A stretch of DNA of 61,705 bases from Candidatus Limnocylindria bacterium (GTDB lineage Bacteria; Chloroflexota; Limnocylindria; P2-11E), in contig JBBRQB010000005.1 in the NCBI GenBank assembly GCA_038227105.1, forward strand, positions 1 through 61,705, given 5' to 3'. The position numbers were made by a program, and so were the translations under genes. Shown here in pieces: positions 11,412 through 31,600 of the stretch (the first letter of the stretch is position 1; each line of letters opens with the position of its first letter). The notes below the pieces were generated by a model. That model did not search any database. It saw only the letters and a list, made by a program, of their open reading frames with translations, and had not been told where the DNA came from.

Positions 11412-11914
11412 CAACGCGCCCCGCGCCCGGCGCTCGGCGCGGGGAGGACGCGGCTGGGATCCGACACGTCGAGCACCGCTTCGACGATCGTGCCGTAGCC
11501 GGTGCACCGGCAAATGTTGCCTTCCATCCAGTGCTTGACAGTGGCGGCATCGGGGTGCGGACGCTCGTCGAGCAGGGCCTTCGCGGCCATGATCATCCCC
11601 GGGGTGCAGTAGCCGCACTGGAACGCGAAGCGATCGATGAACGCCTGCTGTATCGGATGCAGCTGGTTGCCATCTGCAAGACCCTCGATGGTATCGACCG
11701 TGCGGCCCTCTGCTTCGATCGCGAGCGTGGTGCACGAGCTGACCGGGCGACCGTCGAGCAGCACCGTGCAGGCGCCGCAGACCTGTGTGTCGCAGCTGAG
11801 CTTCGTGCCGACGAGCCCGAGCCCACGCACGAGCTCGATGAGCAGCACCTGATCCTCGACCTCGAGCGTGCGCTCGACGCCGTTGAGGGTGAGACCGATC
11901 TCCCGCCGCGCCAC
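11411..11914 (-). CDS. 2x[2Fe-2S] small subunit (CoxS-like)
   Basis: CDTQVCGACTV, FQCGYCTPG, NICRCTGY. Confidence 0.95.
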   Translation of the reverse strand: MARREIGLTLNGVERTLEVEDQVLLIELVRGLGLVGTKLSCDTQVCGACTVLLDGRPVSSCTTLAIEAEGRTVDTIEGLADGNQLHPIQQAFIDRFAFQCGYCTPGMIMAAKALLDERPHPDAATVKHWMEGNICRCTGYGTIVEAVLDVSDPSRVLPAPSAGRGAR

Positions 11915-11916
11915 GG

Positions 11917-12774
11917 TCAGGCCGCCCCGGCCATGAGTTCGCCCAGCGCGCGCTTCACGAAGACACCGACGATGTGCCGTTTGTACTCGGCAGTGCCGGC
12001 GAGATCGTCACTGGGATCCACGGCTGCGCGCGCGGCCTCGGCGAGCGCATCTGCCGTGCCTGGATCGCGCGCGTCGGCGCCCGAGAGCTGCCCGGTCGGG
12101 ACCGCACGGGGCACCTCGTCGACCGCGCCGATGACGAGCGCGGGCGCGCCGATGAATTTCCCGTCGCGGATGGTCGCGACCGCAGCGACTCCGAGGCTCG
12201 GCCGCTCGAGGACCTGGAACTTCACGTAGGCCATCCGCACGTCGCGCACCGGGATAGGGATCTCGATCGCGACGATGATCTCGTCCGGGCCGAGCGCGGT
12301 CTGGTACATGCCGGTGAGCAGCTCGCTCACGAGAAGGGTCCGGGTCCCGCCCGGACCTTCAAGGACGACGTGCGCGCCGAGGGCGACGAGGAGCGCCGGA
12401 GGGTCCGCATGCGGCTCCGCGAACGCGAGGTTGCCGGCGAGCGTTCCGGCGGCACGGACCCGGATATTCGCCACGTGCGCCTCGAGCTTCGCGAAGACAG
12501 GGAGGGCCTTGGCGATGGCGGGGTCGCGCTCGAGATCCCAGTGGGTAACGGTCGCGCCGATCCGGACGGCCTCGTCCGTAACGGTGACCCCCCGGAGCGC
12601 GCCGATGGGCTTGATGTCGATCAGGTGCGGCCAGCGGGCGACGCCCAGCTTCATGGCGAGGAGGAGCTCGGTCCCGCCGGCATAGACGGCAGCGTCCTCA
12701 CCGTGCTGCTGTCGGAGCGCCACGGCCTCCGCCACGGAAGCCACCCGATGGACATCGAAACGCCGCAAGACCAA
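11917..12774 (-). CDS. FAD-binding medium subunit (CoxM-like)
   Basis: AGGTELL, RAAGTLAGN, PHAD motifs; adjacent to S and L subunits. Confidence 0.92.
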   Translation of the reverse strand: MVLRRFDVHRVASVAEAVALRQQHGEDAAVYAGGTELLLAMKLGVARWPHLIDIKPIGALRGVTVTDEAVRIGATVTHWDLERDPAIAKALPVFAKLEAHVANIRVRAAGTLAGNLAFAEPHADPPALLVALGAHVVLEGPGGTRTLLVSELLTGMYQTALGPDEIIVAIEIPIPVRDVRMAYVKFQVLERPSLGVAAVATIRDGKFIGAPALVIGAVDEVPRAVPTGQLSGADARDPGTADALAEAARAAVDPSDDLAGTAEYKRHIVGVFVKRALGELMAGAA

Positions 12775-12806
12775 TTTTCAGGCCCCTTCGTCAGTGCTGC
12801 CGGTCC

Positions 12807-12825
12807 ACTGTATCCGATATACAGT
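12807..12825. promoter_or_regulatory. Palindromic operator ACTGTAT-N5-ATACAGT
   Basis: Perfect 7-bp arms in the intergenic gap upstream of the FAD subunit; core GTAT-N5-ATAC recurs at 31638 and 32951. Confidence 0.6.
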
Positions 12826-12829
12826 CGCC

Positions 12830-13309
12830 TTAGACGTGACCAGAGCCGATGGCTTCCGCGGCGCCCAGCTCCCGCCCGAGGTTCGAGAAGAACTCGTCGA
12901 GGACCTTGTCCCCCTTCTTCCGGATGGGGCCCGAGCCGAGCGTCGCGACCCGGCCGGTGATCTCGAAGCGGCCGGCCGCGGTCAGGAACGTGCCGCCGTC
13001 ACGGGGCTCGATGGCGAGCTCGATCGTCGCGGAGATGCGCGAACCGATCTGGCGATCCTCGCCGGCGGCGGCAACGTGCATCGTGCGGGCGTCGGCGTCG
13101 GCGTCGACCTTCACGTCGAGATCGGCGCGCATCGCGAACGGGCCGAGACGATCCTCAAGCATTGCCGAGTAGCGGCGCGGCGGATCCACATCCTTCACGT
13201 CTCGAACGACCGAGAGCCACGACGCGACCCGGCGCACGTCCCCCAACGCGTCCCATACCGCGGTCGGCGTCGCGGACAGCTGGATCGTCTTGGCGAAATC
13301 CTGGAACAC
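12830..13309 (-). CDS. CoxG/SRPBCC family protein
   Basis: GTG 13309 with GGAGGAG RBS; VWDALGD...RLGPF...GRVATLGSGPI CoxG-like pattern; next to Mo hydroxylase genes. Confidence 0.8.
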   Translation of the reverse strand: MFQDFAKTIQLSATPTAVWDALGDVRRVASWLSVVRDVKDVDPPRRYSAMLEDRLGPFAMRADLDVKVDADADARTMHVAAAGEDRQIGSRISATIELAIEPRDGGTFLTAAGRFEITGRVATLGSGPIRKKGDKVLDEFFSNLGRELGAAEAIGSGHV

Positions 13310-13356
13310 GTTTCTCCTCCACGCGAAGACATCGTCAGTAAAACACGAGGTGAGAG

Positions 13357-14466
13357 ATGAGCGACGCATCCGCGGCAGCACAGGGCACTGAGCAGCAGCG
13401 ACCGGCGACGTGGGGCCGCGGGGCGTATGAGCAGTTCATCGAGACCGAGGGGATCCCGATCCACACGGGCGTCGCAGTCGAGGACCTCCGCACCGCGAAG
13501 GTGGCCCCGTGGGCCCGCCTCGACGCGAAGGGCGCCTACATCCGGCTCCTCGGCGCCGAAGACACGGACAACGGCTACCTCCTCGAGCTCGACCCCGGCA
13601 AGTCGAGCGCGCCGGAGAAGCATCTGTTCGAGGAGTACTTCTTCGTCCTGACGGGTCGCGGCACGTGCGAGGTCTGGAACGAGGGCGAAGCGCCGCGCAC
13701 GTTCGAATGGCAGGAAGGCAGCCTCTTCTCGGTGCCGCTCAACACGCTGCACCGTCTGCACAACGGCTCGGGCTCGCTGCCCGCCCGCCTGCTCGCAGTG
13801 ACAACGATGCCGATCATGATGAATCTCGTGCACAACACCGAGTTCATCTTCGGTGGTGCGGACTATCTCTTCCGCGACCGCTACGACGGGCGCAAGGAGT
13901 ACTTCGACGGCGCCGGCACGCTCTACACCGGCCGGGTCTGGGAGACGAACTTCGTCGCCGACATCCGCCGGTTCCAGCTTCGTGACTGGCACGAGCGCGG
14001 AGCGGGCAGCAAGAACATCCGCTTCGAATTCGCGAACAACACGATGGTCTCCCACGTGTCCGAGTTCCCGGTCGGCACCTATAAGAAGGGTCACCGCCAC
14101 GGGCCGGGGTACCACGTCGTCATGCTGAATGGCACGGGCTACTCGCTGATGTGGCCGGACGGCGCCGCTGAGATGACCGAGGTCAACTGGAAGGTCGGCT
14201 CGCTGTTCGTGCCGCCGGGTCTCTGGTGGCACCAGCACTTCGTGACCGGCAACGAGCCGGCGCGGTACCTCGCTATCCGCTGGGGCGGCAACAAGTGGAA
14301 GCTGGCCCAGTACCTCGACAACCAGGGCGTCGACAAGGACGTCTCGCAGGGTGGCAACCAGATCGAGTACGAAGACCAGGACCCGAAGATCCATCGCCTG
14401 TACCTCGAGCGCTGCGCCGCCAACGGGGTGCCGGTGAAGATGGACGCCTTCAAGGTCCGCGTTTAG
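13357..14466 (+). CDS. Bicupin metalloprotein 1
   Basis: Two cupin repeats: KHLFEE...LHRLHN and HRHGPG...WWHQH; GAGG RBS. Confidence 0.85.
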   Translation: MSDASAAAQGTEQQRPATWGRGAYEQFIETEGIPIHTGVAVEDLRTAKVAPWARLDAKGAYIRLLGAEDTDNGYLLELDPGKSSAPEKHLFEEYFFVLTGRGTCEVWNEGEAPRTFEWQEGSLFSVPLNTLHRLHNGSGSLPARLLAVTTMPIMMNLVHNTEFIFGGADYLFRDRYDGRKEYFDGAGTLYTGRVWETNFVADIRRFQLRDWHERGAGSKNIRFEFANNTMVSHVSEFPVGTYKKGHRHGPGYHVVMLNGTGYSLMWPDGAAEMTEVNWKVGSLFVPPGLWWHQHFVTGNEPARYLAIRWGGNKWKLAQYLDNQGVDKDVSQGGNQIEYEDQDPKIHRLYLERCAANGVPVKMDAFKVRV

Positions 14467-14533
14467 GCACGACCGGCACCTGACGCACGCGCACCGGGAT
14501 CACACACACGACGCCGGTGGCCACGAGGGGAAC

Positions 14534-15946
14534 GTGGCCACCGAGCGTCTTCGTCTGCGCACGGTGGGCATCGACATCGGCACGACGACCTCGCACCTGA
14601 TCTTCTCGGAGATCGTGCTCGAGCGGCAGGGCATCCTGCTCTCCAGCGCGTACGGCGTGGTCGAGCGGAACATCATCCACCGGTCCGACGTCGCGCTCAC
14701 GCCCTATGCGGCCGGCCGTCGCATCGACACCGCCGCGCTGGCTGCGTTCATCGAACGCTCGTACCGCGAGGCGGGCTGGCGGCCCGAACAGGTCGACACG
14801 GGCGCGGTCATCACGACCGGCGAGGCCGCCCGCCAGGAGAATGCCGCCGCGATCGTTGCGCTCTTCAGCGGCGAGGCCGGAAAGTTCGTGTGCGCCACCG
14901 CGGGTCATCACCTCGAGAGCCTCCTCGCCGCGCACGGCTCGGGCGCGGTGCGGCGGTCGCGCGAGGCCGCTACTCCCCTCGTCCTGAGCATCGACATCGG
15001 AGGCGGCACCACCAAGCTCGCGGTCTGCCGGGATGGGCGGGTCGAGGAGACCGCGGCGATCGACGTCGGCGCGCGGCTCTTCGCCTGGGACGCTGTAGGC
15101 ACGATCGTGACCGCGACCCGCGCCGGAGCGCGCGTCGCCTTGGAGGCGGGCGTGCGCATCGCCCTCGGCGACGCGGCCGACCCGCAGGCGCTCCAGGCCG
15201 TGGCCGACCAGATCGCGGACCAGGCGTTGCGCGTCGCGGCGGGCACGCCATTCGACGACGCGGGGATCTGGCTCACCGCGCCGCTCGTGGCGCAGGGCCC
15301 GTTCCCGGTCCTCATGTTCTCCGGTGGCGTTGGCGAATACGTCAACGGCTGGCAGGACCGCGAGTACGGTGACCTCGGGCTCCTCGTCGGTCGGGCGATC
15401 GTGCGACGGACGGCGGCGTTCTCGGTGCTACGGCCCGTCGAGTCCATCCGCGCCACCTGCATCGGCGCCTCCCAGTACACGGTCCAAGTGAGCGGCGACA
15501 CGCTGTTCCTCTCCGATCCGGGCTTGCTGCCGCTGCGCGACCTCGCGGCCGTGGCCGTGCGGCCGGAGCAGGCCGACGCGAGCGCGATCGCTGCCGAGAT
15601 CCGCCGCGGGATCACCCGCCTCGATCGTGAGGGCGGATCGTTCGCGCTCGCGGTGCGCTGGCGGCACGGCTCCCGGTACCCGATGCTCCGTGCGCTCTGC
15701 GACGGCATCGTCGCCGGTACGCAGGGACGGATCGCGGCCGGCGGTCCGCTCGTGATCGTGCTCGATGCGGACGTAGCCGGGATCGTCGGCCAGATCCTCG
15801 TGAGCGAGCTTGGGGTCAGCTCGCCGATCGTCTGCGTGGATCAGATCGCGCTGTCGGACCTCGACTTCATCGACATCGGCACGGTCGTGCCCGAGCACGC
15901 CGTCGTGCCGGTCGTCGTGAAGAGCCTCGTCTTCTCCGAGCGTTAG
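14534..15946 (+). CDS. eutA: EutA-family (ethanolamine ammonia-lyase reactivase-like) ASKHA ATPase
   Basis: VGIDIGTTTSHLIFS, TGEAARQENA, FVCATAGHHLESLLAAHGSGA, IDIGGGT, FSGGV, IRATCIGAS. Confidence 0.85.
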   Translation: MATERLRLRTVGIDIGTTTSHLIFSEIVLERQGILLSSAYGVVERNIIHRSDVALTPYAAGRRIDTAALAAFIERSYREAGWRPEQVDTGAVITTGEAARQENAAAIVALFSGEAGKFVCATAGHHLESLLAAHGSGAVRRSREAATPLVLSIDIGGGTTKLAVCRDGRVEETAAIDVGARLFAWDAVGTIVTATRAGARVALEAGVRIALGDAADPQALQAVADQIADQALRVAAGTPFDDAGIWLTAPLVAQGPFPVLMFSGGVGEYVNGWQDREYGDLGLLVGRAIVRRTAAFSVLRPVESIRATCIGASQYTVQVSGDTLFLSDPGLLPLRDLAAVAVRPEQADASAIAAEIRRGITRLDREGGSFALAVRWRHGSRYPMLRALCDGIVAGTQGRIAAGGPLVIVLDADVAGIVGQILVSELGVSSPIVCVDQIALSDLDFIDIGTVVPEHAVVPVVVKSLVFSER

Positions 15947-17274
15947 CTCGTCCCGGCCGCGACCGACGCGGCGATATCGCGATTGAGATGCGCCCCGAGT
16001 GGCACCGAGGCGGGGCGGTCCTGGTTGCAGAGGTCCATCGCGATCCGCGCGTAGACCCGTGCCGCGTCCTGCAGGTCCTTCACCTTGAACGACTTCTTGG
16101 CTGCGTGGCTGGCCGAGCGCGGCGCGTAGCTGATCGCGGGGATGCCGAGCTCGTTGAAGGCGTTCGTGTCGCGCCACATGCTCGTGACCGGCTCCCCCAC
16201 GATCGCCGGCGGCGTCGAAAAGGTCTGATCGTGCGACCGCCGGACGGTCTCGATGAGCCGCTCGGCACCTTTGGCTTCGAACCCGGGCCGGTAGAGGAAG
16301 AGCTCGACCGTTCCGTCGACGCCCGCGGTACGAAGGACCCCACGGAGCTCCTCCCGGATATCGATGGGATTCGCCCCGGGCAGGATGCGGGTGTCGACAT
16401 AGAAGGAGCAGACCTGGGGCGCGCTGGTCAGGCTGAACGGATACCCCGACCGGATGGCGTTGACGCTCGCCTTGGGCACGATCGTGCCGGCGGGGCCGCG
16501 GTACGTATTCCGTTGCTGGTAGCCGTAAGCCCACTCCTCGAACGTCGCGATGACCGCTGCCGCCCTGACGATGGCGTTCGGCGCGTCCGCGAGACCAGTC
16601 GGTCGCGGCAGGTACGGGGTGTAGTAGCGCGGCGTGTCGGTCTGGATCGTGACCTTGAAGTGGGCCTTGCCGGGCTCGACGCCGACGATCCCGAAGCCGG
16701 TCCCCTCTGCGACGATCGCGAAGTCGGCGACGGCGCCGTGGGTCACCATGAAGCGCACGCCGAGGTCCTTCGACAGGTACATGGGGCCTTGCCATTCCTC
16801 GATCGGCTCCCGTGAGATCTCGCCAGCGACGGCGCTCACGATGAGGTCTCCCTTCAGCGGGAATCCGGAATCCTTGATCGCCTTGGCGGCCACGAGGAAC
16901 GCGGCCATCGGCCCCTTGTCGTTCACCACCCCGTCGCCATAGATGTCCTCGCCGTCGACCCAGGCCGAGTGATAGAGCGGGTCGTTCGGATCCTTGGCCG
17001 ACCAGACGGCGTCGCGGCGGAGCGTCGTGTCGAGGTGGGAGTTGTAGATGAGGCTATAGCCGCCGCCCGTCCCGTTGAGCCACGCGGCGACGTTGAACCG
17101 CTCCGGGATCAGCGCGAACTTCTTCGGCGCGAAGCCGTTGCGCTCGAGCCACTCGTACACGAACTGGCCCGCCGGCCCCTCGCTCCCGGTCGGACTATCG
17201 ATGTTGCCGAGAGCCAGCGCGAGGTCGACGACCTCCTGCGGGTCGATGTGGGCAACGACATCGTCGGGGGTCAT
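15943..17274 (-). CDS. M20 family (ArgE/DapE-like) metallo-amidohydrolase
   Basis: DSPTGSE, NSHLDT, YGDGVVNDKG, IVAEGT; ATG 17274 with AAGGAG RBS. Confidence 0.85.
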   Translation of the reverse strand: MTPDDVVAHIDPQEVVDLALALGNIDSPTGSEGPAGQFVYEWLERNGFAPKKFALIPERFNVAAWLNGTGGGYSLIYNSHLDTTLRRDAVWSAKDPNDPLYHSAWVDGEDIYGDGVVNDKGPMAAFLVAAKAIKDSGFPLKGDLIVSAVAGEISREPIEEWQGPMYLSKDLGVRFMVTHGAVADFAIVAEGTGFGIVGVEPGKAHFKVTIQTDTPRYYTPYLPRPTGLADAPNAIVRAAAVIATFEEWAYGYQQRNTYRGPAGTIVPKASVNAIRSGYPFSLTSAPQVCSFYVDTRILPGANPIDIREELRGVLRTAGVDGTVELFLYRPGFEAKGAERLIETVRRSHDQTFSTPPAIVGEPVTSMWRDTNAFNELGIPAISYAPRSASHAAKKSFKVKDLQDAARVYARIAMDLCNQDRPASVPLGAHLNRDIAASVAAGTS

Positions 17275-17291
17275 CTCACTCGCTCCTTGTC

Positions 17292-18509
17292 TCAATTCAA
17301 GTCCACGGTCGGCGGCACGCCGATGCGCGCAATGAGGGACGCGAGCAGCAGCACGATGGCCGCGGTGATGATCGCAGCTTGGGCGCTGATGAGATCCATC
17401 ACCGCAGCGAGCGCGACGGGACCGATGAACGCCCCGAGGTCGGCTGAGAAACGATAGGTCCCGAGGACCTTCGTGCGATCCTGCGGGGGGACGATCTCCG
17501 ACAGCAGCGCGGTCTGGGAGCTCGAGAAGAAGTCCCCGAACCCGATGAGCGCCGCGGCGAGCAGGAATGTCACCAGGTCGTGCGTGAACAGGAAGACCAG
17601 GTCGCCTGCGGCGATCGCCGCGAGCCCAGCGGTGATGATCCGCCGCCGGCCCACACGGTCGCCCAGCATGCCGCCCGGCGTCGCGACCAGCAGGCCGGTG
17701 ATCGACATGAGCGCGATGGCCGTGGCGATCGAGATGCCGCCGAGCCCGAGCGCCGTCGCCGCGTAGAGCGGCAGGATCGTGTTCCGGAAGCCGTGGCGGT
17801 TGATCATGTTGGCGACGACGCCCAGGTTCGTCGCGCCGATCGCGATCACGCGCTCCCGGCCATGAAGAACGCGTGCCTCGCCCAGCGATGCGCGGGGAGC
17901 GGACCCGCTGCGCGGGTGCACCTGCCGCAGCACCGGCAGCAGGATCGCTCCGGCGACCAGGATGAGCGCGAACGTGACGGCGAAGGTCACCCGCCAGCCG
18001 AACAGCACGCCGATGACGCCGCCCACCAGCGGGTACGCGGCGATGCCGACGTTGTTCGCGACGTGGAACAGGCTCATCACCTTGCCGCGATTGCTCGGCG
18101 TCGCAGTTGCGCTGAGGGAGGACAGGACCACCGTCGCAAGGATCCCGACCGCGAAGCCGGATCCCACCCGCGCGACGATCAGCCGCTCGACCGAGGCCGC
18201 GTTGAGCCCGATGAGGCATGACACGAGGGCCAGCACGAGCGCCACCATGCTGATGCGCCGGTGCCCCACCCGGTCGGACACGAAGCCGGCCGGCAGGTCG
18301 ATGATCAGGCGCGCGAGGCCGAACGCTCCGACAATGACGCCGGCCATCGCGATGCTGACCCCGAAGTCCTTCCGGATGTCAGGCAAGAGCGGCGTCATGA
18401 TGTTCGTCGCCGACACGATGAGGAACAGCGCGCCGGCGAGCAGGAAGGACTCCCGCGGGATCGACTCCCGTGCCGCTGCGGCCGGTCCGTCAGCCGCGAC
18501 GGCGGTCAC
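17292..18509 (-). CDS. MFS transporter
   Basis: GFVSDRVGHRR and GMLGDRVGRRR motifs; about 12 TM helices. Confidence 0.9.
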   Translation of the reverse strand: MTAVAADGPAAAARESIPRESFLLAGALFLIVSATNIMTPLLPDIRKDFGVSIAMAGVIVGAFGLARLIIDLPAGFVSDRVGHRRISMVALVLALVSCLIGLNAASVERLIVARVGSGFAVGILATVVLSSLSATATPSNRGKVMSLFHVANNVGIAAYPLVGGVIGVLFGWRVTFAVTFALILVAGAILLPVLRQVHPRSGSAPRASLGEARVLHGRERVIAIGATNLGVVANMINRHGFRNTILPLYAATALGLGGISIATAIALMSITGLLVATPGGMLGDRVGRRRIITAGLAAIAAGDLVFLFTHDLVTFLLAAALIGFGDFFSSSQTALLSEIVPPQDRTKVLGTYRFSADLGAFIGPVALAAVMDLISAQAAIITAAIVLLLASLIARIGVPPTVDLN

Positions 18510-19372
18510 TCGGCGCGCAGCGCCGCGGCGACATCGGCGAGCGTGAGCCGCTCCGGTGCGAGCGCGAGCTCGCGGGTCGAGCTCGCCGCGCGAAGGACGA
18601 GCTTGCGCACCTGGCGCGCGTCAAAGGCCTTGTCAGCGCACGCGCTCGCGATCGCCTGGAGCGCGGCCTCGTCGATGCGGTCGGCGGGCACCAGCTCGGA
18701 GAGGGTGTCGCGGAGGATGCGCGCGATGGCCTTCACGCCGGGCAGTCCGACCTCCTCGACGAGGTCGGCGCGGGAGAGGAACGCAACGTCCACGCCGGCT
18801 GAATGGTTCGTGGTCGCGACGAACGTCACGTTCGGGCAGCTGCGGGACACGTGGTCGACGCCGGCAAGGACCGCGTCGGTGGCGCGATGCACGTCCACCG
18901 GATTCGTCTCGAGCGAAGCTCCGGCCCGACTCACCGCCAGGGACTCGACCTCGTCCAAGAGGACGATCGTCGGGCGGCCCCGGCGCGCGAGATCGGGCAG
19001 CGTCCGCTCGAAGAGCCGAGCAACGCTGCGCTGACTCTCACCGAGCATCTGGCTCGGGAACGAGTGCGGATCGATGTCCACGAAGAGGATCGGATCCCCG
19101 AGCACGCGCGCCGCCTGATCGGCGAGGCCGCCGGCGAGGGTGGTCTTCCCCGTACCCGGCGGGCCCGCGAGCACGACGAGGCCGTGGATCGGCAGCCCGA
19201 CCGCGCTGACCCCGCCGCGGTGCTTGAGCGACAGCAGCAGGTAATTGAGCAGCCGCTCCTTGAGCTCCGGCGCCACGAAGATGCGGTCCCACCGTTCTTG
19301 CCACGCAGGGTCGGGAAGCTCCGTGATCGAGACGATCCCCTCGATCCCCGGTGGGACCTGGACGGCGGGCAT
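18506..19372 (-). CDS. AAA+ ATPase, Pch2/TRIP13-like
   Basis: Walker A GPPGTGKT, Walker B LLDEVESL, sensor 1 ATTN, DVAFLSRAD Arg finger; N-terminal LP...W..I.....K..LL.Y as in Pch2/TRIP13. Confidence 0.85.
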   Translation of the reverse strand: MPAVQVPPGIEGIVSITELPDPAWQERWDRIFVAPELKERLLNYLLLSLKHRGGVSAVGLPIHGLVVLAGPPGTGKTTLAGGLADQAARVLGDPILFVDIDPHSFPSQMLGESQRSVARLFERTLPDLARRGRPTIVLLDEVESLAVSRAGASLETNPVDVHRATDAVLAGVDHVSRSCPNVTFVATTNHSAGVDVAFLSRADLVEEVGLPGVKAIARILRDTLSELVPADRIDEAALQAIASACADKAFDARQVRKLVLRAASSTRELALAPERLTLADVAAALRAE

Positions 19373-19375
19373 GCG

Positions 19376-20422
19376 TTAGGCCCCGGGCCGCCCAGCGAAG
19401 TGCTCGGGCCCGATGAGCCGGGAGAGATCCGGTGCGTCGAGCTCAGGAAGCTCCTCGAACAGGTTCATCGGGTCGAGGAGGATCCGCATCATGTCGTAGA
19501 GCGCGTCGAAGTTGTGCACGCGGATGAGCCGCGCGGTCTTCGTCTTGTCGTCAGTGAAGTGCTGGTGCCAGGCCCAGTGGTCGACCACGATGAGGTCGCC
19601 CTCCTCCCAGGGGAAGCTCACGCCATCGAGCTCGCTGTGGCCCCGTCCGGAGACGACGTAGAGCCAGGCCTCGCCGCCGTGGCGGTGGCGCGACTGGTAG
19701 AGGCCGGGCGCGAGCTCGTGCATGACCGCGGAGAGACCCGCGGTGTGGTACCCGATGGACGTGTCGATGAGGAAGAGGCTGCGGGCACCACGCTTGGTGA
19801 TGAGCCCGCGGACGTCATCGAAGCGCGTGATGAGCCGTGCGCTGTCAGATCCCGCGAACTGCTGCGCGAGGCGCTGGGTGCGCCGGGCGAGCGGATCCGC
19901 CCCGGCGATCGCGGCGACCTGCTTGGGACGCGGTGGCAGCTTCGCGACCGGAGTGTCGCCGCCGTCCTCGAGGAGCGCGACGCCGAACTGCTCGAGCATC
20001 GGTTGCACGCTCCAGGTGTGGAAGACCGCGGTGGTGTCCGAGTCATTGCCATGGCGGTGCCAGGCCCAGCTCGGCAGGTGGATGGTGTCCCAAGGCCGCC
20101 AATCGATGCGCTGGCCGTCGATCTCGGTCCAGCCGGTGCCGGACTCGATGAACTCGATCGCGTCCCACGAGTGGCGGTGCACCGTCGTGGTCGTGTGCGG
20201 CGGGATCTCGTGCAGCGTCGCGTCCAGGTTCTTTGTCGGCTTGTCGCCGTCGTAGCCCGCGTACACGCCGCTTCGCATCCGCCGGCCGGGAACGTCATGC
20301 ATGACGACGTCGCTCCGCTTGATGACCGTCTTGTGGTAGCGCTTCCACTCGTCCAGCAGCGACTCGCGCCGCTTCTTCTGGATCTCGTAGTGGGTCACCT
20401 GGGTGGTCGTCGTCGTCTTCAT
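19376..20422 (-). CDS. Bicupin metalloprotein 2
   Basis: HRHSWD...WHRH and HRHGGE...WHQH. Confidence 0.88.
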   Translation of the reverse strand: MKTTTTTQVTHYEIQKKRRESLLDEWKRYHKTVIKRSDVVMHDVPGRRMRSGVYAGYDGDKPTKNLDATLHEIPPHTTTTVHRHSWDAIEFIESGTGWTEIDGQRIDWRPWDTIHLPSWAWHRHGNDSDTTAVFHTWSVQPMLEQFGVALLEDGGDTPVAKLPPRPKQVAAIAGADPLARRTQRLAQQFAGSDSARLITRFDDVRGLITKRGARSLFLIDTSIGYHTAGLSAVMHELAPGLYQSRHRHGGEAWLYVVSGRGHSELDGVSFPWEEGDLIVVDHWAWHQHFTDDKTKTARLIRVHNFDALYDMMRILLDPMNLFEELPELDAPDLSRLIGPEHFAGRPGA

Positions 20423-20424
20423 GA

Positions 20425-21423
20425 CTAGTGCTTCAGCGCCGGCTCACGGCCGGAGACCCGCGGCAGAACGTCACGCGCGAGCGTCTCGATCTGCTGGAGC
20501 CAGTCCGGGAAGCGCATCCGGAAGTCGAAGACGAGGAGGTCGCAGCCGATATCCTGGTACCGCTGGATGCCGCGGACGATGTCGTCGGGCGTGCCGGCGA
20601 GGATCGATCCGTCGAGCTCCTCGATCTTCGTGAACTCGCCGGATTCGGGCTTGTTCCACCACTTCTGGGCGTTCGCGTTCTTGATGAGGCCTGGCACGTT
20701 CATCCGGTCGGTGGCGGCCTGGTAGGACGTGTCGATGCTCGTCACCGGCACGGCGCCGGTCATGATCATCGGCTTGCCCTGCTTCTCGGCCATCTGTTTG
20801 ATCTTCTTCACCCGCTCCTCGTACGTCGGGAACGTGATGCGGCCGGGGATCCAACCCTCGCAGAAGTCCACCGCAAGCCGCGCGGAGGCCGGCGTCGCAC
20901 CGCCCCACCACACCGGTACCGGGTGCACCGGCTGCGGCTTGAGGTCCACGTCAGCGAAGTTGTAGAGGTCGCTGTGCCATTCGACGGTCTCCCCCGCCCA
21001 GAGCTTTCGCGCGATGAGGACGTGCTCCTTCATCATCGCGGGACGGTCGACCGAGCTCTGCCCGATGACGTCGAACTCGTGCTGGAAGTTGCCGGAGCCG
21101 ATGCCGAGGTCGAACTTCCTGCGGGTCATCCAGGACATCGAGGCGACGCTGTAGGCCATGTGCAGCGGGTTGCGGAACGGGATGATCGTCGCGGCGCCGA
21201 GACCGATCTTCTCCGTCACGCCCGCCAGATAGGTCAGCGCGACGAACGGCTCGATGAACGTGCGGTCGGTCCCCTCCATGCCGTGCGGATGGAACACGAG
21301 GTGATCGCGCACCCACAGGGAGTCGAAGCCGAGGCGGTCCGCGAGCTGCGCACCCTGGATGAGCAGGTCCTGGTCAGCCTCGACACCGAAGTGCGGGATG
21401 AGCAGGCCGAAGCGCGTGGTCAT
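20425..21423 (-). CDS. LLM-class flavin/F420-dependent oxidoreductase
   Basis: GFDSLWVRDH, LGIGSG, PVWWGG; ATG 21423 with GAAGGAG RBS. Confidence 0.88.
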   Translation of the reverse strand: MTTRFGLLIPHFGVEADQDLLIQGAQLADRLGFDSLWVRDHLVFHPHGMEGTDRTFIEPFVALTYLAGVTEKIGLGAATIIPFRNPLHMAYSVASMSWMTRRKFDLGIGSGNFQHEFDVIGQSSVDRPAMMKEHVLIARKLWAGETVEWHSDLYNFADVDLKPQPVHPVPVWWGGATPASARLAVDFCEGWIPGRITFPTYEERVKKIKQMAEKQGKPMIMTGAVPVTSIDTSYQAATDRMNVPGLIKNANAQKWWNKPESGEFTKIEELDGSILAGTPDDIVRGIQRYQDIGCDLLVFDFRMRFPDWLQQIETLARDVLPRVSGREPALKH

Positions 21424-21531
21424 GGCCGGGTCTCCTTCCGTGGGCGGTGTCCGCGTGCCGTGCTCAAGACCGAAGGTCGCGCGCCCGACGTCCCCGGCAT
21501 GTGGCCGGGGACGTCGAGCCAACGAGCGGAG

Positions 21532-22608
21532 CTACTTCGTCGGGATGCTGTACTTCGCGTAGAAGCCGCCGTCGACGAGCTTCTGGAGGAACGACAGGTC
21601 GTAGCACTTCTTGAGATCGACGCCCGCCACGGGCGGGTTCACGCTCGAGAGCACTTCCTTCGGCGCCACGAACGCTTCTTCGGTGAAGATCATCGAGCGC
21701 AGGCCGTAGTCGAGGAAGCCCTTCACGGCGGTCACCGCGTCGGCCGGCTTGAGCTGGGCCGCGTCGGCGAACTTCACGGCGACATCCGCGTTGTTCGTCC
21801 AGAAGTAGTTCTGCGCGCGCACAGTCGCGGCGACGACGTTCAGGACCGTGTTCGGGTTCTTCGCGACGAAGTCGGCGCGCGCCATGAGACCGCTACGGCC
21901 CCACTGGCCACCCTTGGTCACATCGACGATGAGGTTGTTCCCCGCCGCCTTGAGCTTGTCGTCGTTCACCAGCCCGGCCATGATGCAATCGATCGAGCCG
22001 CCGAGGAGCGCCGCGATCCGCGTGCCCTCGCCGCCGACCTCTTTGATCACGACATCCTTGTTCGTGTAGTTCAGGAGCCTGACGGCGATGAGCGCCGAGC
22101 CGTGCGACGTGCCACCGAACGTGCTGATGGCGATCGCCTTGCCCTTGACGTCAGCCGCGGTCTTGATGGTCGACTTGCAGTAGAGACCGTCGGTGTTCAG
22201 GACACTGTTGACCGAAAGGACCTTCAACGGCGTGTCGGTGAGCTGCGACGAGATGGCCGAGGTGACGCCACCGACGAAGAAGTCGAGCTGACCGGCGACG
22301 AGCGCCTGAAGGGCCTTCCCGTCACCCTCGAAGCCGGTCACGGTCACGGAGGTGATGCCGAGCTCCTTGTAATAGCCGAGCGTGTCGGCAAGACGTTCCG
22401 CGTACTGCACGGGCTCCGTCGGCGCGCTAATGCCGATGCGGATCGTGGTCAGCTCGGGCTTGGGCAGCGCGCCCTGCGCCGCTGATGCGCTCGCCGCCGG
22501 GGCGGGCGTTGCGCTGGGGGCGGTCGTGCCGCCGCCGCACGCAGCGGCAACGAGACCGATCGCCGTGATGGCCGCGAGGAACCTAACGAGCTTGAGGTTT
22601 GAGATCAT
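21532..22608 (-). CDS. NitT/TauT ABC substrate-binding lipoprotein
   Basis: Signal peptide with lipobox AAAC, ADVKGK, RIAALLGGSID. Confidence 0.88.
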   Translation of the reverse strand: MISNLKLVRFLAAITAIGLVAAACGGGTTAPSATPAPAASASAAQGALPKPELTTIRIGISAPTEPVQYAERLADTLGYYKELGITSVTVTGFEGDGKALQALVAGQLDFFVGGVTSAISSQLTDTPLKVLSVNSVLNTDGLYCKSTIKTAADVKGKAIAISTFGGTSHGSALIAVRLLNYTNKDVVIKEVGGEGTRIAALLGGSIDCIMAGLVNDDKLKAAGNNLIVDVTKGGQWGRSGLMARADFVAKNPNTVLNVVAATVRAQNYFWTNNADVAVKFADAAQLKPADAVTAVKGFLDYGLRSMIFTEEAFVAPKEVLSSVNPPVAGVDLKKCYDLSFLQKLVDGGFYAKYSIPTK

Positions 22609-22681
22609 CGCTCTACACCCCTTCATCTCGGCCCGGCCCACCGCCGGACGCGCTGAAAATGTAGCCGAGCGAGGCTACATC

Positions 22682-22714: not shown

Positions 22715-23542
22715 CTAGTGGATCTCCTGGCGCCAGACCTCGTAGCGCTTCTCGATCCGGCGCACGCCCTCACCGAGCAGGACCCCGAAGAGGCCGAGGA
22801 GCACGATGCCGAGCATGACGCGGGACGTCTGCAGGAACGCGCCATTCTCCTCGATGTAGTGGCCGATGCCCGCGTTCGCCGCGAGCTCCTCCGCCACGAT
22901 CACACCGACGAGCGCTCGGCCGGTCGCGATGCGGAGGCCGGTCAGCAGGAACGGGAACGTGCTGGGGAGGATCACCGACCGGAACTGCAGCCAGCGCGAG
23001 GCGCCGAAGCTGCGCGCGATGTCGCGGTGCCGCTCGGCCGCTGACTTCACACCCGCGACCGTGCTCACGATGAGCGAGAAGAAGGTCAGCAGGAACACCA
23101 AGATGACCTTCGACTCGAGGCCGATCCCCGCCACGAGGATGATCAGTGGAGCGATCGCCGCCTTCGGCGTCGAGTAGATGCCGAACAGCAGGTAGCTCAC
23201 GAAGTACTCGACTCGGCGGAACATCCCGATAGCAAGACCGAGCGGTATCCCGACGGCGGCGGCGGCGAAGAACCCGAGGAAGAACTCGATACCGCTCGAC
23301 CAGAGGTCGTCCAAGATCTTGCCCGAACCGAAGTCCTGCACCGCCGCGGTGAACACCAAGGACGGCACGCTGAGCAGCGACCGGCGATAGAGGCCGAAGT
23401 CCCCGGCGGCCTCCCAGATCAGGGCGACCACGACGAAGCCGAGGATCCCGTAGAAGAGGCGCTCGTTCGAATTGATGAGCTTGCGCAGCGGACCCGGGCC
23501 CGCCGGGCGCAACGGAGTGGATCCGATCGAGACCGTCGCCAC
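22715..23542 (-). CDS. ABC permease (NitT/TauT)
   Basis: ARSFGAS EAA-loop, LTGLR, GVIVAEE. Confidence 0.9.
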   Translation of the reverse strand: MATVSIGSTPLRPAGPGPLRKLINSNERLFYGILGFVVVALIWEAAGDFGLYRRSLLSVPSLVFTAAVQDFGSGKILDDLWSSGIEFFLGFFAAAAVGIPLGLAIGMFRRVEYFVSYLLFGIYSTPKAAIAPLIILVAGIGLESKVILVFLLTFFSLIVSTVAGVKSAAERHRDIARSFGASRWLQFRSVILPSTFPFLLTGLRIATGRALVGVIVAEELAANAGIGHYIEENGAFLQTSRVMLGIVLLGLFGVLLGEGVRRIEKRYEVWRQEIH

Positions 23543-23544
23543 GC

Positions 23545-24336
23545 TCAGGCCACCTGCGTCGCAGCGGTCACGGCATGCTGGGACAACAGCTTCCAGATCT
23601 GCGCTTCATAAGCGACGAATGCCGGCTCGCGCTTGACCTCGAGCGGCCGCGGCCGGGGAATGTCGATCTTGATGTCGGCGAGGATGCGGCCCGGCCGTGC
23701 CGACATGACGATGACCCGATCCGAGAGGTACACCGCTTCATCGATCTGATGCGTCACGAAGACCACCGTCTTCCGCGCCGCGTTCCAGATGCGGAGGAGC
23801 TCGGCCTGCATCACCTCGCGCGTCTGGGCGTCCAGCGACGCGAAGGGCTCGTCCATGAGCAGGATCGGCGTGTCGACGGCGAGCGCCCGCGCGAGATTGG
23901 CGCGCTGCTGCATGCCACCGGACAGCTGGTACGGGTACTTCGTTTCGAACCCCTGAAGGCCAACGAGCTCCACGAGCGGGGCAGCGCGGCGCCGCGCCTC
24001 GTCGTTCTTGACGCCGGCGCAGACCAAGCCGTAGGCCACGTTGTCGATCACCGAGTACCACGGGAAGAGCGCGGCGTCCTGGAAGACCATCGCGTCCTCA
24101 CGCCCCTTGCCGGTGCCACGAAGCTTGATCTCCCCGGCTGTGGCTTTCAGCAGACCGTTGACGATCTTGAGGAAGGTCGACTTGCCGCAGCCGCTCGGCC
24201 CCAGGATGCTCACGAACTCGCCATCCGCGATGTCGAGGTCCATCCCTTCGATCGCCACGAGCCGTGCCTGCGAGCTGCGATCGCGGTATTCCATGCGGAC
24301 GCCCCGGGCGCTCAGCGCCAGCTCTGAAGTCGTCAC
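23545..24336 (-). CDS. ABC ATP-binding protein
   Basis: GPSGCGKST, LSGGMQQR, LLMDEPF, VTH. Confidence 0.93.
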   Translation of the reverse strand: MTTSELALSARGVRMEYRDRSSQARLVAIEGMDLDIADGEFVSILGPSGCGKSTFLKIVNGLLKATAGEIKLRGTGKGREDAMVFQDAALFPWYSVIDNVAYGLVCAGVKNDEARRRAAPLVELVGLQGFETKYPYQLSGGMQQRANLARALAVDTPILLMDEPFASLDAQTREVMQAELLRIWNAARKTVVFVTHQIDEAVYLSDRVIVMSARPGRILADIKIDIPRPRPLEVKREPAFVAYEAQIWKLLSQHAVTAATQVA

Positions 24337-24337
24337 G

Positions 24338-25201
24338 TTACGGCCCCTCCTCGAGATCCACGTTCGCGCTCGGACGCCAACGCTGGAAACGATGCTCGAT
24401 GCGTCCGGCAAGCTCTGTGGTCAGGACACCCATGAGCGTGAAGATCAGGACGCCGAACAGCATGCGACCACTGTCGAGGACGTCCGCCGCGCGGTCGATC
24501 ATCACCCCGATGCCCTCGGTCTGCGCGTAGAGCTCGGCGACGACCACACCGATGAGCAGGCGCCCCAGCGCCAGCCGGACACCGGTCGCGATGAACGGGA
24601 TCGTCGCCGGGATGACGATCGAGGTGAACAGGCGACGCTGTGACGCGCGAAAGCTGTGACCGACATCGAGAAGCTGCTGATCGACGGTCCGGACGCCCTC
24701 GACCGTCGGCAGGATGATCGAGAAGAAGCCACCGAGGAACACGATGACGATCTTCATCTCGATCCCGAGGCCGACCCACAGGACGACGAGCGGGATCAGC
24801 GCGGGGCGCGGGATCGCGTTCAGGAAGTTCAGCCAGGGGTCGAAGGAGAACGAGAGGCGGCGGTACCAGCCGATCAGGAGACCCAGCGGCACCGCCAGCA
24901 CAAGCGATGCGATGAACCCGACGGTCACTTCCGTCAGGCTGTAGCGGACGTCGTTCCAGAAGCGCGACTTTTGGACCTCCGCCACGGCCGCGGCGAAAAC
25001 GCCGGCCGGGGAGCTGAAGAACAGGTCATTGATGAGACCGAGGTTCGACAGGACCTGCCAGAGGACGAAGAACGTGACCAGACCGCTGAGGCCCAGGGCC
25101 GCTCGTTCGTTGCGCCGGTACCACCGGCCGAGCGCGGACCGGCGTCGCCGGGCGCGCGGCCGGATCACTCGATAGGTGGCGACGGCATCCGCGGACTGCA
25201 C
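24338..25201 (-). CDS. ABC permease (NitT/TauT)
   Basis: GHSFRAS EAA-loop, ATGVR, GVVVAEL. Confidence 0.9.
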   Translation of the reverse strand: MQSADAVATYRVIRPRARRRRSALGRWYRRNERAALGLSGLVTFFVLWQVLSNLGLINDLFFSSPAGVFAAAVAEVQKSRFWNDVRYSLTEVTVGFIASLVLAVPLGLLIGWYRRLSFSFDPWLNFLNAIPRPALIPLVVLWVGLGIEMKIVIVFLGGFFSIILPTVEGVRTVDQQLLDVGHSFRASQRRLFTSIVIPATIPFIATGVRLALGRLLIGVVVAELYAQTEGIGVMIDRAADVLDSGRMLFGVLIFTLMGVLTTELAGRIEHRFQRWRPSANVDLEEGP

Positions 25202-25342
25202 GGATCAACTCCTCGGGTTACGCGCATCCCACTCGCGACTGCCGGGCAATGTACGGGCGGAACGAACACAAAGTCAATCGGTTTGTGCGCAGCCGGAGCC
25301 AAATCGGACTCAGCCCGCTGGCCAGCCGTACGCTCGGAGCGC

Positions 25343-26167
25343 ATGAAGACGATCGACGTCGACGGGCAGCCGGTCGCGTATGAGCTCCGCGGGAGCGGCG
25401 TCCCTCTCGTCCTCGTGACGGGCACCGGCTACCCCGGCGCGACGTGGCCGCCCGCGTTCGTCGAGCCGCTCCTCCAGCGGCACAGCGTCCTCATCTTCGA
25501 TCATCGCGGGACCGGTGCGACACCTGCCGGCACCGAGCATCTCTCGACGCGGCTCTTCGCCCGTGACGCGGTCGGTCTCATGGATGCCTTGGATCTGGAA
25601 GCGGCCCACGTCCTCGGCCACTCGATGGGCGGCCGGGTCGCGCAGTGGATGGCGCTCGACCGTCCAGAGCGCGTCCGCAGCCTCATCCTCGCCGCAACGG
25701 GACCCGGTCAGTACCGCGACGACACGCCGGTGACGCGCGGCATCCCGCTGCGCCACGCGAAAGAGCTCATCGAGATGGGCTATGAGCGGTACATGCGCGA
25801 GCACATCGAGCTGACGTTCTTCACGCCGGAGTTCGCGGCGTCGCACCCCGAGGTCGTCGACTGGCTGTTCGAGGCGTACTGGGCCCACCGTCCCGACGTC
25901 GAAAGCTACCTACGGCACATCGTCGCGCGTCAGGAGCACCAGACCGCGCACCGGCTGGCGGAGATCACCCCGCCGACACTCGTGCTGATCGGGGACCGCG
26001 ACACCCTGGCGATGGGCACCGGCGTGCACACCGAACAATCGGATTACCTCGCGGCACACATACCGAACGCGACGAAGCTCGTCATCACCGGCGCAGCGCA
26101 CGGCTACTTCTGGCAGGACCCCGAGGCCACCGTCAGAAGCGTGCTCGAGTGGACCGCGGCGCACTGA
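25343..26167 (+). CDS. Alpha/beta hydrolase
   Basis: DHRGTG, GHSMGG nucleophile elbow, GDRD, GAAH; ATG 25343 with GGAG RBS. Confidence 0.9.
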   Translation: MKTIDVDGQPVAYELRGSGVPLVLVTGTGYPGATWPPAFVEPLLQRHSVLIFDHRGTGATPAGTEHLSTRLFARDAVGLMDALDLEAAHVLGHSMGGRVAQWMALDRPERVRSLILAATGPGQYRDDTPVTRGIPLRHAKELIEMGYERYMREHIELTFFTPEFAASHPEVVDWLFEAYWAHRPDVESYLRHIVARQEHQTAHRLAEITPPTLVLIGDRDTLAMGTGVHTEQSDYLAAHIPNATKLVITGAAHGYFWQDPEATVRSVLEWTAAH

Positions 26168-26170
26168 CCG

Positions 26171-27436: not shown

Positions 27437-27672
27437 CGCCCACCCTCCGCATCCGGTACCGGCTCGCCATCCGCATCGAGGATCTCGATCGCGTGCGTCG
27501 GGCAATTGCTGCGGGCGCGGAGGAGCAGTCCACGGTCGGCACTGTGCGCGCCCGGCTGTGGCACCGAGACACCGAGTGACTCAGCGATGCGGAACGCGGC
27601 GGGCAGCAGCCGCACGCAATCACCGGAGCCGATGCAAAGCTCAGGGTCGACGGTCACCTGGGGCTCGCTCAT
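27433..27672 (-). CDS. [3Fe-4S]-type ferredoxin
   Basis: CIGSGDC...CPTHAI; its stop overlaps the P450 start. Confidence 0.88.
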   Translation of the reverse strand: MSEPQVTVDPELCIGSGDCVRLLPAAFRIAESLGVSVPQPGAHSADRGLLLRARSNCPTHAIEILDADGEPVPDAEGGR

Positions 27673-30610: not shown

Positions 30611-31600
30611 CTAGATGGTCGCGGTCGCGAGCTTGTCCTTGTCGACGATCTTGTCGTACCCGCTCCAGAGCGCCTCGTAGAAGAAGCGGACCCCGAACTC
30701 GATGCGCAGGGTGCGCGTGCGGGCATCGGAGCCATTGAAGTGCTCATGCACGGTCTGGCGCGGCGGCACGTGCACGGCGTCGCCGGCCTCCCAGTCGTAC
30801 CGCTTGCCGTCGATCTCCGAATAGCCCTGACCCTCGAGCACATACAGCATCGCCTCGGTGTGCGAATGCCGGTGGCTGCCGGAGTGCGGCGCCTCCTCGA
30901 AGATGTTCGTCATCGAGACGGCCTTCGCTCGGAAGCCGTTCGTCTCGTCACTCGGGCTCTCGCTCCCGCCCATCAGGATCCAGATGCCGGCATGACGGTG
31001 CGCGCTCTTCTGCTCGCCCTTCGGGTGCGCGTGGCCTGAGAGCCGGCGGGCCTTCTCGTCGATCGCGTCCTCCAGGTGGAGGGCGATGCGGCGGCCATCG
31101 ACTCCGAGCTGCGACGCCTCCGCCGGGTACCGCTTTGCGAGCTCGCCGCGGTCGGGGCCTTTGTCTTCGAGCTGCACGAGGCGGCCGAGCTTCACGTCGA
31201 AGTCGAGGTCTTGGGTCACAGCGGAGATGTACGTCGCCGGTTCGCTGCCGGTGTTCACGTGCTGGTGCTCCGCGCGGTACTGGATGTGGAGGGTCGTTCC
31301 CGGCTTCCAGTCGTAACGCGCGCCGTCGATGACGCTGAAGCCCGAGCCCGACGTGATGTGGATCGCCTCTTCGCCGTGCATGTGCTTCCCGGTCCGGGAC
31401 CCCGCCGGGATCTCGGCGGTCAGGAGGGCGGTGCCCTGGGTCGGGAAGCCGCTCGCCTCGCCGATGAGCATGGCCACCCGGAAGTCCTGCGGCGTCTCGA
31501 TCCACGTGAGGTCCCTGCCACGAGCGATGACCGGCGGCGCGACCAGCCGCTCCTCGAGCCGCTTGCTCTCAGCGAGCCAGGCGCGATAGAAGTCGCTCAT
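30611..31600 (-). CDS. Bicupin metalloprotein 3
   Basis: HMHGEE...EHQH and HSHTE...HEH; GGAGG RBS. Confidence 0.85.

Follow-up and report, generated by a model that had tools for sequence, protein, structure and literature searches.

Two converging operons of a Limnocylindria bacterium pair bicupins with EutA-like and TRIP13-like ATPases that may remodel them

The window analysed here is the whole of one contig (61,705 nucleotides) of a 2.39-Mb genome of the class Limnocylindria (Chloroflexota), which is divided over 109 contigs and is 91.9% complete. At positions 13357 to 22608 two sets of genes converge. On the plus strand, a cupin protein with two barrels (bicupin-1) is followed by an ASKHA ATPase of the EutA family. 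On the minus strand, an NMT1/SsuA-like binding protein (SBP), a luciferase-like (LLM) oxidoreductase, a second bicupin (bicupin-2), an AAA+ ATPase of the TRIP13/Pch2 family, a major facilitator superfamily (MFS) transporter and an M20-family amidohydrolase follow one another. A preliminary description of this DNA had read these genes as two converging modules. Searches with Pfam and NCBIfam models recovered all eight genes in the order and on the strands given there, and the stop codons of the two sets overlap (Table 1). The GC content across the region is 65-72%, and the nearest protein matches bear the name of Chloroflexota of the class Limnocylindria.

Table 1. Features of the converging modules and of the genes flanking them, with positions in the window.
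Feature	Position	Strand	Evidence
Molybdenum-hydroxylase large subunit (molybdenum cofactor, MoCo)	9147-11735	-	Pfam MoCoBD_1/2
Molybdenum-hydroxylase flavin adenine dinucleotide (FAD) subunit	11917-12774	-	Pfam FAD_binding_5
CoxG-like gene	12830-13381	-	Pfam COXG
Bicupin-1, 369 amino acids	13357-14466	+	Pfam Cupin_2, E 1.2e-13
EutA-family ASKHA ATPase, 470 amino acids	14534-15946	+	PF06277, E 3.1e-113, residues 8-467
Overlapping stop codons of the converging gene sets	15943-15946		Read directly in the sequence
M20-family (ArgE/DapE-like) amidohydrolase, at the end of the minus-strand operon	15943-17274	-	Pfam Peptidase_M20, M20_dimer
MFS transporter	17292-18509	-	MFS_1, E 1.4e-55
TRIP13/Pch2-family AAA+ ATPase, 288 amino acids	18506-19372	-	PADLOC PDLC00915
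Bicupin-2, 348 amino acids	19376-20422	-	Pfam, two Cupin_2 stretches, E 1.9e-24
Codons for bicupin-2 residues 1-12, predicted Thr-rich disordered tail	20387-20422	-	Model and alignment
Luciferase-like (LLM) oxidoreductase	20425-21522	-	Bac_luciferase, E 2.3e-47
NMT1/SsuA-like binding protein (SBP)	21532-22641	-	Pfam, NCBIfam
ATP-binding cassette (ABC) permease	22715-23542	-	Pfam, NCBIfam
ABC ATPase	23545-24411	-	Pfam, NCBIfam
Second ABC permease	24338-25201	-	Pfam, NCBIfam

A gap of 3 bases separates bicupin-2 from the TRIP13-like gene, and the stop of the latter overlaps the start of the MFS gene by 4 bases. On the opposite strand 67 bases lie between bicupin-1 and the EutA-like gene, with a ribosome-binding site ahead of the GTG start. 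The start of the M20 gene was set at the ATG at 17274, which is preceded by a ribosome-binding site; the longest open reading frame (ORF) extends to 18219. The NCBIfam matches of this gene were all under cut-off.

The pairing of bicupin-2 with the TRIP13-like ATPase was followed through 201 genomes of the class, 27 of which encode the ATPase. At all 27 loci a bicupin-2 gene is situated directly upstream of it and, within the flanks of 1.5 kb to which these neighbour counts refer, the LLM gene lies upstream of bicupin-2 at 23 loci and the MFS gene downstream at 21. Bicupin-2 orthologs (at least 75% identity) were located beside the ATPase in 27/27 cases, further copies being cut by contig ends, and no ATPase adjoined the more distant paralogs (63% identity or less). 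One genome, G049, has an operon of SBP, LLM, bicupin-2, MFS and M20 genes with 28 bases in place of the ATPase gene (L141, G049:C70 3528-5643). In other phyla the ATPase follows a bicupin-2-like gene of 50-54% identity in a Burkholderiales metagenome-assembled genome (MAG), an Actinomycetota MAG and Mycolicibacterium wolinskyi, amid transporters and hydrolases, and these pairs make up three of the at least five closest ATPase relatives listed from named genomes. At the examined actinobacterial loci, tblastn detected no LLM gene. Among 301 Mycobacteriales genomes a TRIP13-like gene was present in 10, in 7 of them behind a bicupin-2-like gene and in 3 as part of CBASS, an antiphage signalling system based on cyclic oligonucleotides. 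The proposed link between bicupin-2 and its ATPase is thus conserved at every class locus and extends to Actinomycetota and Burkholderiales. Two bicupin-2 paralogs of related genomes carry in-frame stops (G028:C40:12630-13637, one TAG; G140:C85:35383-36138, a TGA and a TAG) and may be pseudogenes or assembly errors.

EutA-like genes were present in 38 of the 201 class genomes, and a bicupin-1 relative lay directly upstream at 29 of 30 class loci, the 30th being cut. These loci include paralogous pairs whose two members have both diverged, to 42-58% identity, and the same pair occurs on Phyllobacterium and Sinorhizobium replicons at 33% (bicupin) and 42% (EutA-like) identity. The link between bicupin-1 and its ATPase also holds beyond the locus from which it had been proposed. 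In a FastTree phylogeny of the bicupin-1 family the window protein falls in a clade of 30 rows with full local support, all 30 of them EutA-coupled. The class counts and this tree include two unpublished genomes (G159, G109; L049, L054), without which the conclusions are the same. Of 79 metagenome loci, 68 had room downstream, and those at 60% identity or more to bicupin-1 were EutA-coupled in 12/12 cases. The wider family is represented by 130 genes in the loci at hand, 45 of them before a EutA-like gene, 73 not and 12 cut; the genes downstream of the uncoupled relatives are mutually unrelated and include no ATPase. The expectation that the cupins would mostly be found with these ATPases in other genomes is therefore borne out in the clade of the window protein (30/30) and fails for the wider bicupin-1 family (73 without against 45 with). 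The EutA-like partner is a clade-specific accessory and not a requirement of the fold.

Genes for nickel handling were observed near the pair at two loci. On the Phyllobacterium zundukense plasmid NZ_CP104971.1 (L159, 5681-10063) a HoxN/NixA-type Ni/Co transporter gene and NikR are located directly beside the cupin/EutA-like pair, and in the Burkholderiales MAG (L059) the EutA-like gene and the bicupin-2/ATPase pair have a NicO-like gene (1906-2520) between them. The window contains no Ni/Co transporter gene, and the NicO-like gene of the genome is on another contig. A link of the modules to nickel is thin and serves as a lead only.

Both modules were present in 16 class genomes (27 with the TRIP13-like ATPase and 20 with a EutA-like ortholog among the 201). 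They share a contig in 10 of the 16, at a distance of 3.2-9.2 kb, and are on separate short contigs in the other 6; the convergence of the M20 gene against the EutA-like gene seen in the window recurs at 10 or more ortholog loci. Within the Mycobacteriales sample EutA-like genes were present in 7/301 genomes, namely in 5 of the 7 with a bicupin-linked TRIP13-like gene and in 2 of the 294 others. Spacing of the modules in these five varies from direct adjacency through ∼4 kb, ∼9 kb and ∼29 kb to a place on another contig; in a cultured Mycolicibacterium the two are separated by ∼9 kb. In the actinobacterial genome G415 (L262, G415:C22 3866-8593), bicupin-1-like, EutA-like, bicupin-2-like and TRIP13-like genes form one array on the same strand, and a EutA-like gene lies within 8 kb of the bicupin-2/ATPase pair in the Actinomycetota MAG and within 3 kb in the Burkholderiales MAG. 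The two modules belong together, as had been guessed from the single locus; both are found in Chloroflexota, in Actinomycetota and in one genome of Burkholderiales. Given these conservation counts, the gene arrangement is far beyond chance.

These data bear on the explanation that two ordinary catabolic operons converge here by accident while their ATPases serve clients encoded elsewhere, which we consider very improbable. It would be consistent with the modules being separable, as all seven class genomes of family f3 with the TRIP13-like module lack a EutA-like match and four class genomes with a EutA-like ortholog lack a TRIP13-like match. However, the cupin and ATPase genes are adjacent in three phyla, the co-occurrence in Mycobacteriales is far from even (5/7 vs 2/294), the N-terminal pattern of bicupin-2 tracks the ATPase, and neither HORMA nor EutB was found in the genome (see below).

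The label "TRIP13-like" given to the AAA+ protein proved correct. The protein matched the PADLOC model PDLC00915 over its full length (E 4.5e-90, 300 bits, residues 11-287 on positions 11-290 of the 302-residue profile) and the one-HORMA model PDLC00914 at E 3.7e-16 only. Judged by these profiles, it is a true member of the TRIP13/Pch2 family of the two-HORMA CBASS type. Its closest PDB sequence matches were Cdc48 and PCH2/TRIP13. The Walker A motif occupies residues 70-77 and Walker B comprises D140/E141; in an alignment of 40 members G70, G73, G75, K76, N189, R201 and R253 were invariant and D140 and E141 nearly so, showing that the classic AAA+ motifs (Walker A and B, sensor 1, Arg finger and sensor 2) are intact. 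His162, at the end of the loop after Walker B and beside pore loop 2, was invariant in 32/32 bicupin-linked and 8/8 CBASS ATPases, and the position is occupied by Val in a eukaryote-type Pch2. No cupin was fused to any of 10 longer TRIP13-like representatives scanned.

The relationship to CBASS raises the question of phage defence, with the bicupin replacing HORMA as the sensor. Among the at least five closest relatives listed from named genomes, two (42% identity) stand first in typical type III CBASS operons, where TRIP13 is joined by a pair of HORMA genes, a cyclase and a SAVED nuclease; 12 plasmid matches of the ATPase were found and all 6 that were inspected are CBASS. The window ATPase is 41-49% identical to TRIP13 in verified type III CBASS loci and, in a tree of 79 family members, shares with the CBASS and the extra-phylum bicupin-linked ATPases a well-supported clade of 65 rows. 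Within that tree, which was built by a quick method with Shimodaira-Hasegawa-like approximate likelihood ratio (SH-aLRT) support only, the 8/8 labelled CBASS ATPases form one subclade (support 91) without any bicupin-linked member, the three extra-phylum bicupin-linked ATPases are sister to it (98), and the Limnocylindria ATPases lie outside both. Further, the neighbours at the examined loci are transporters, hydrolases, oxidoreductases and IclR instead of a cyclase, an effector or a defence island. No bacterial HORMA Pfam family was detected in the 91.9%-complete genome or at the locus, although the Pfam controls were equally silent, and CBASS HORMA and cyclase proteins used as phmmer queries gave 0 matches in the six-frame ORFs of the genome. 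A defence role for the locus is, on this evidence, barely credible.

The N-terminus of bicupin-2 was compared between ATPase-linked and unlinked homologs. Ser or Thr occupies positions 3, 5 and 7 in 35 of the 36 ATPase-linked homologs with a readable N-terminus, from three phyla, and in 36/36 the start codon is placed exactly 10 residues ahead of a conserved His. The pattern was present in one of five homologs without an adjacent ATPase, and the contig of that homolog also carries the ATPase, at a distance of 14 kb. In the operon of G049, which is devoid of the ATPase, bicupin-2 also lacks the Ser/Thr pattern. In the model of bicupin-2, residues 1-6 have a predicted local distance difference test (pLDDT) score below 50 and the first helix begins at residue 11.

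This pattern resembles the published substrate signal of a bacterial Pch2. In the E. coli Pch2-HORMA-CdnC structure the HORMA N-terminus sits in the Pch2 pore, where pore loop 1 holds the even HORMA residues via main-chain bonds, and the Ser/Thr residues 3, 5 and 7 are bonded by a ladder of pore-loop-2 His residues (10.1101/694695). The same report describes conservation of Ser/Thr at every second position in HORMA proteins and loss of the effect of the ATPase when the HORMA tail is removed (10.1101/694695). The HORMA2 proteins of eight CBASS loci likewise had Ser/Thr-rich starts. His162 may correspond to the pore-loop-2 His of E. coli Pch2. We propose that the disordered tail of bicupin-2 is a handle that would be gripped by the TRIP13-like ATPase.

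The EutA-like protein matched PF06277 with 379.6 bits (cut-off 27) over nearly its whole length of 470 residues. It remained under the cut-offs of all four NCBIfam EutA equivalog models (best 328.4 bits vs 598). The nucleotide-binding motifs form invariant alignment columns, and the identity to Klebsiella and E. coli EutA is 34-37%. Its closest cultured relatives, from Phyllobacterium and Sinorhizobium (42-44% identity), are again encoded behind a cupin. A His-rich C-terminal tail was absent, as 0 of 40 complete EutA-like proteins had more than 2 His in the last 45 residues. EutB (PF06751) was not found in the 91.9%-complete genome, and the E. coli control was positive. The earlier remark that both ATPases lack their canonical client therefore holds, for EutB and for HORMA, as far as a genome of this completeness shows.

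Among 14 control genomes the EutA Pfam family was matched in 5 (E. coli, B. subtilis, Caulobacter, Thermus thermophilus and Deinococcus radiodurans), in 4 of them above cut-off, and EutB in E. coli alone; model organisms, too, may hold EutA-family proteins without the lyase. P0393, a bicupin-1-family cupin of 362 residues, appears at NCBI under the name "ethanolamine ammonia lyase-activating protein", which was apparently transferred to it from the adjoining EutA-like gene.

A complex of the EutA-like protein with bicupin-1 was predicted with a median interaction prediction score from aligned errors (ipSAE) of 0.75, compared with 0.00 for the best of 3 controls; in a calibration this mark was reached by 58/80 solved complexes and 2/110 mismatched pairs. 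As the complex was predicted from alignments made for this analysis, the calibration applies to it only roughly. The runs agreed in at least 83% of contacts and the pLDDT of the partner was at least 88. At the predicted interface the C-terminal part of the EutA-like protein (residues 322-456) meets bicupin-1 at its N-terminal barrel, the one poor in His (residues 80-141, 201 and 205); predicted contacts include residues 379-386 and 412-425 of the EutA-like protein and 101-105 and 135-141 of bicupin-1. As the PDB holds no solved relative of the EutA-like protein by sequence, the prediction is not the recall of a known complex.

The two bicupins are ∼25% identical to each other (tblastn cross-matches). 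In bicupin-1, an alignment of 26 homologs showed invariant H246, H248, H292 and H294 and nearly invariant H253 in the C-terminal barrel, and no conserved His site in the N-terminal one. Its model (mean pLDDT 88) has two barrels and disordered residues 1-15. By sequence it has no solved relative in the PDB, its score against a gentisate-dioxygenase model was 27.2 bits (cut-off 650), and a fold search returned generic bicupins only (oxalate decarboxylase, MncA and vicilins; template modelling score ∼0.48), which gave no functional hint. The PDB title of MncA, one of these neighbours, states that the folding location can decide the metal bound. Bicupin-2 was likewise modelled with two barrels, and His clusters are conserved in both (H82, H84 and H122; H246, H248, H286 and H288). 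A third, gentisate-dioxygenase-like bicupin is encoded at 30611-31600 on the minus strand, 10 kb away, and is 33% identical to bicupin-2; bicupins of this third type adjoin uncoupled bicupin-1 paralogs in related genomes.

The reading we put forward, with about even confidence, is that each ATPase remodels its own bicupin, which would give a single catabolic cluster two bicupins and two dedicated ATP-driven remodellers. Much as its relatives in CBASS handle HORMA proteins, the TRIP13-family hexamer would take the N-terminal tail of bicupin-2, with its disorder and its Ser/Thr pattern, into the pore and partly unfold the N-terminal barrel. The EutA-like protein would bind with its C-terminal part to the N-terminal barrel of bicupin-1 and use ATP to open it, after the manner of EutA-type reactivases. 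In both cases remodelling may load, exchange or free a buried metal centre, or a trapped inhibitor, and so keep the enzymes active; the target of the remodellers would be the enzyme itself, no small molecule being involved. The gene pairings, their co-inheritance, the N-terminal pattern and a predicted EutA-like/bicupin-1 complex that passed its controls are shown here, but in which direction the ATPases act, whether they unfold the barrels and to what end, be it metal exchange, repair or control, are inferred, as is the maintenance suggested earlier (release of an inhibitor or of a damaged metal centre). Loading or exchange of metal is a reasonable purpose: cupins bury their metal, and for MncA, a structural neighbour of bicupin-1, the PDB title says that the place of folding can decide the metal. 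A stronger form, which we hold to be unlikely, is that of a "double activase": two unrelated remodellers, co-inherited in at least three phyla, each keeping one of two paralogous bicupins of one pathway in order by partly unfolding it for the exchange of a kinetically trapped metal or inhibitor.

Several observations weigh against this remodelling hypothesis. A EutA-like neighbour is lacking in the majority of the wider bicupin-1 family (73 vs 45), the metagenome loci at 51% identity or less were coupled in 2/56 cases only, and with most relatives uncoupled, cupin chemistry as such needs no ATPase. On the FastTree phylogeny the EutA-coupled state requires at least 8 changes, and the residues of bicupin-1 at the predicted interface show no better conservation in EutA-linked than in unlinked relatives. 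The 7/7 class genomes of family f3 with the TRIP13-like module gave no EutA-like match, and therefore the two modules can work apart. The genomes in which both co-occur are related and not independent; Fisher tests of co-occurrence overstate the association and are a guide only. The nickel link comes from two proteobacterial loci, and no such transporter is present at the EutA-linked metagenome loci. Finally, the one-HORMA and two-HORMA families are described as having different pore loops (10.1101/694695).

The handle and pairing evidence, and the co-occurrence of the modules, would also fit a regulatory switch, in which the TRIP13-like ATPase, as TRIP13 does to HORMA complexes, dismantles or inactivates an assembled oligomer of bicupin, or an assembly that joins both bicupins, and thereby sets the activity of the pathway, and the EutA-like protein does likewise for bicupin-1. 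In the literature consulted, disassembly and inactivation of a complex is the only activity shown for a bacterial TRIP13 (10.1101/694695; PMC10419184). On the other hand, the ATPases are encoded in tight operons with their clients, so that enzyme and off switch would be made together, and no sensor or regulator domain was detected in either by Pfam. EutA-family proteins, moreover, are known as activators and not as inhibitors. On balance we judge a switch to be quite unlikely.

Alternatively, the ATPases could themselves be pathway enzymes or catalytic subunits; the EutA-like protein, for instance, might phosphorylate or activate a small molecule that bicupin-1 converts. Many kinases belong to the ASKHA proteins, the genes are part of catabolic operons with transporters and hydrolases, and the predicted complex would be compatible with an enzyme of two subunits. 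Yet the EutA-like protein matches a reactivase family over its full length (E 3e-113) and is 34-37% identical to genuine EutA, the TRIP13 family is not known for any chemistry on small molecules, and the relatives of the bicupins work alone in most lineages, one operon being without the AAA+ gene. Because a natural ATPase-less operon and many uncoupled relatives exist, the ATPase is better seen as a helper than as a catalytic subunit, and a direct catalytic role is decidedly unlikely.

Under the remodelling hypothesis, the two modules share features with several known systems and depart from each. The TRIP13-like protein has the family, size and AAA+ motifs of CBASS Trip13/Pch2 (Cap6), together with the invariant His beside pore loop 2, and the tail of bicupin-2, predicted to be disordered with Ser/Thr at every second residue, is like that of CBASS HORMA substrates. 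Unlike in type III CBASS, none of HORMA, CD-NTase cyclase or effector is encoded in the window operon, and neither HORMA nor cyclase was matched in the genome; what is conserved next to the ATPase is a bicupin enzyme, within an operon for catabolism. Like EutA, the EutA-like protein matches PF06277 in full length and is encoded beside the enzyme that it is proposed to serve. It differs from EutA in falling under the equivalog cut-offs, in the absence of EutB from the genome and in having a bicupin, and not a B12 enzyme, as partner. DdrAB and GlmL are further reactivases.

AAA+ proteins encoded beside a metalloenzyme, which they remodel to free or build the active site, include the Rubisco activases (Rca, CbbX, CbbQO) and the MoxR-type maturases (CoxD, NorQ). 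These belong to other AAA+ clades and have other clients, and to our knowledge no member acts on a cupin; in addition, a second, unrelated ATPase fold would here do the parallel job for a paralogous enzyme. Bicupin-2 itself aligns with solved gentisate 1,2-dioxygenases in the PDB (E 2e-16 to 6e-11) and, like the gentisate, salicylate and 5-aminosalicylate 1,2-dioxygenases, which are ring-cleaving bicupins, has His clusters in its barrels. Unlike gentisate 1,2-dioxygenases, it scores far under the family cut-offs (TIGR02272, 68.1 vs 442.1 bits; NF049978, 81.3 vs 650) and keeps a His cluster in both barrels. We know of no gentisate-type dioxygenase with an ATPase partner. A literature search, with subscription journals and supplementary files outside its reach, found no report linking a cupin to TRIP13/Pch2 or to a EutA-type reactivase. 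New are the co-inheritance across phyla, the HORMA-like Ser/Thr handle proposed here, the natural ATPase-less variant and the predicted EutA-like/bicupin complex.

The genes around the modules point to catabolism. The molybdenum-hydroxylase genes (9147 to 13381) are divergent from bicupin-1, and a CoxG-like gene is found divergent beside the bicupin-1 ortholog at 15 of 20 ortholog loci (L029-L048), the remainder being cut or without it. At its other end, the minus-strand operon extends past 22608 into the ABC importer genes, two permeases and an ATPase (22715-25201). Other loci have among their neighbours a Rieske oxygenase, amidohydrolase_2, an isochorismatase-type hydrolase and IclR. Taken together, the molybdenum hydroxylase, LLM oxidoreductase, M20 amidohydrolase and importers suggest the breakdown of an aromatic or N-heterocyclic acid. 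Beyond the importer genes, at 24656-27505, lie an alpha/beta-hydrolase gene on the plus strand and a cytochrome P450 gene on the minus strand.

Work on TRIP13/Pch2 treats it as a remodeller specific to HORMA that acts in checkpoints, meiosis and phage defence, and EutA-type reactivases are regarded as assisting B12 enzymes. It would be a corollary of the double activase that the TRIP13/Pch2 family has a metabolic, HORMA-free branch that reads the same N-terminal Ser/Thr code; a conserved branch serving a metabolic enzyme would widen the role of the family and provide a simple bacterial model of substrate choice by that code. As the metabolic branch lies outside the CBASS subclade, enzyme care rather than signalling could be the older bacterial job of the family. 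A bicupin client would likewise make EutA-type reactivases general enzyme-repair factors. Cupins trap whatever metal they fold around, and ATP-driven reloading would account for the correct metal reaching them in the cell; it could also explain the failed heterologous expression of such enzymes without their neighbours. With the pairs present in cultured Mycolicibacterium, Phyllobacterium and Sinorhizobium, the idea is directly testable.

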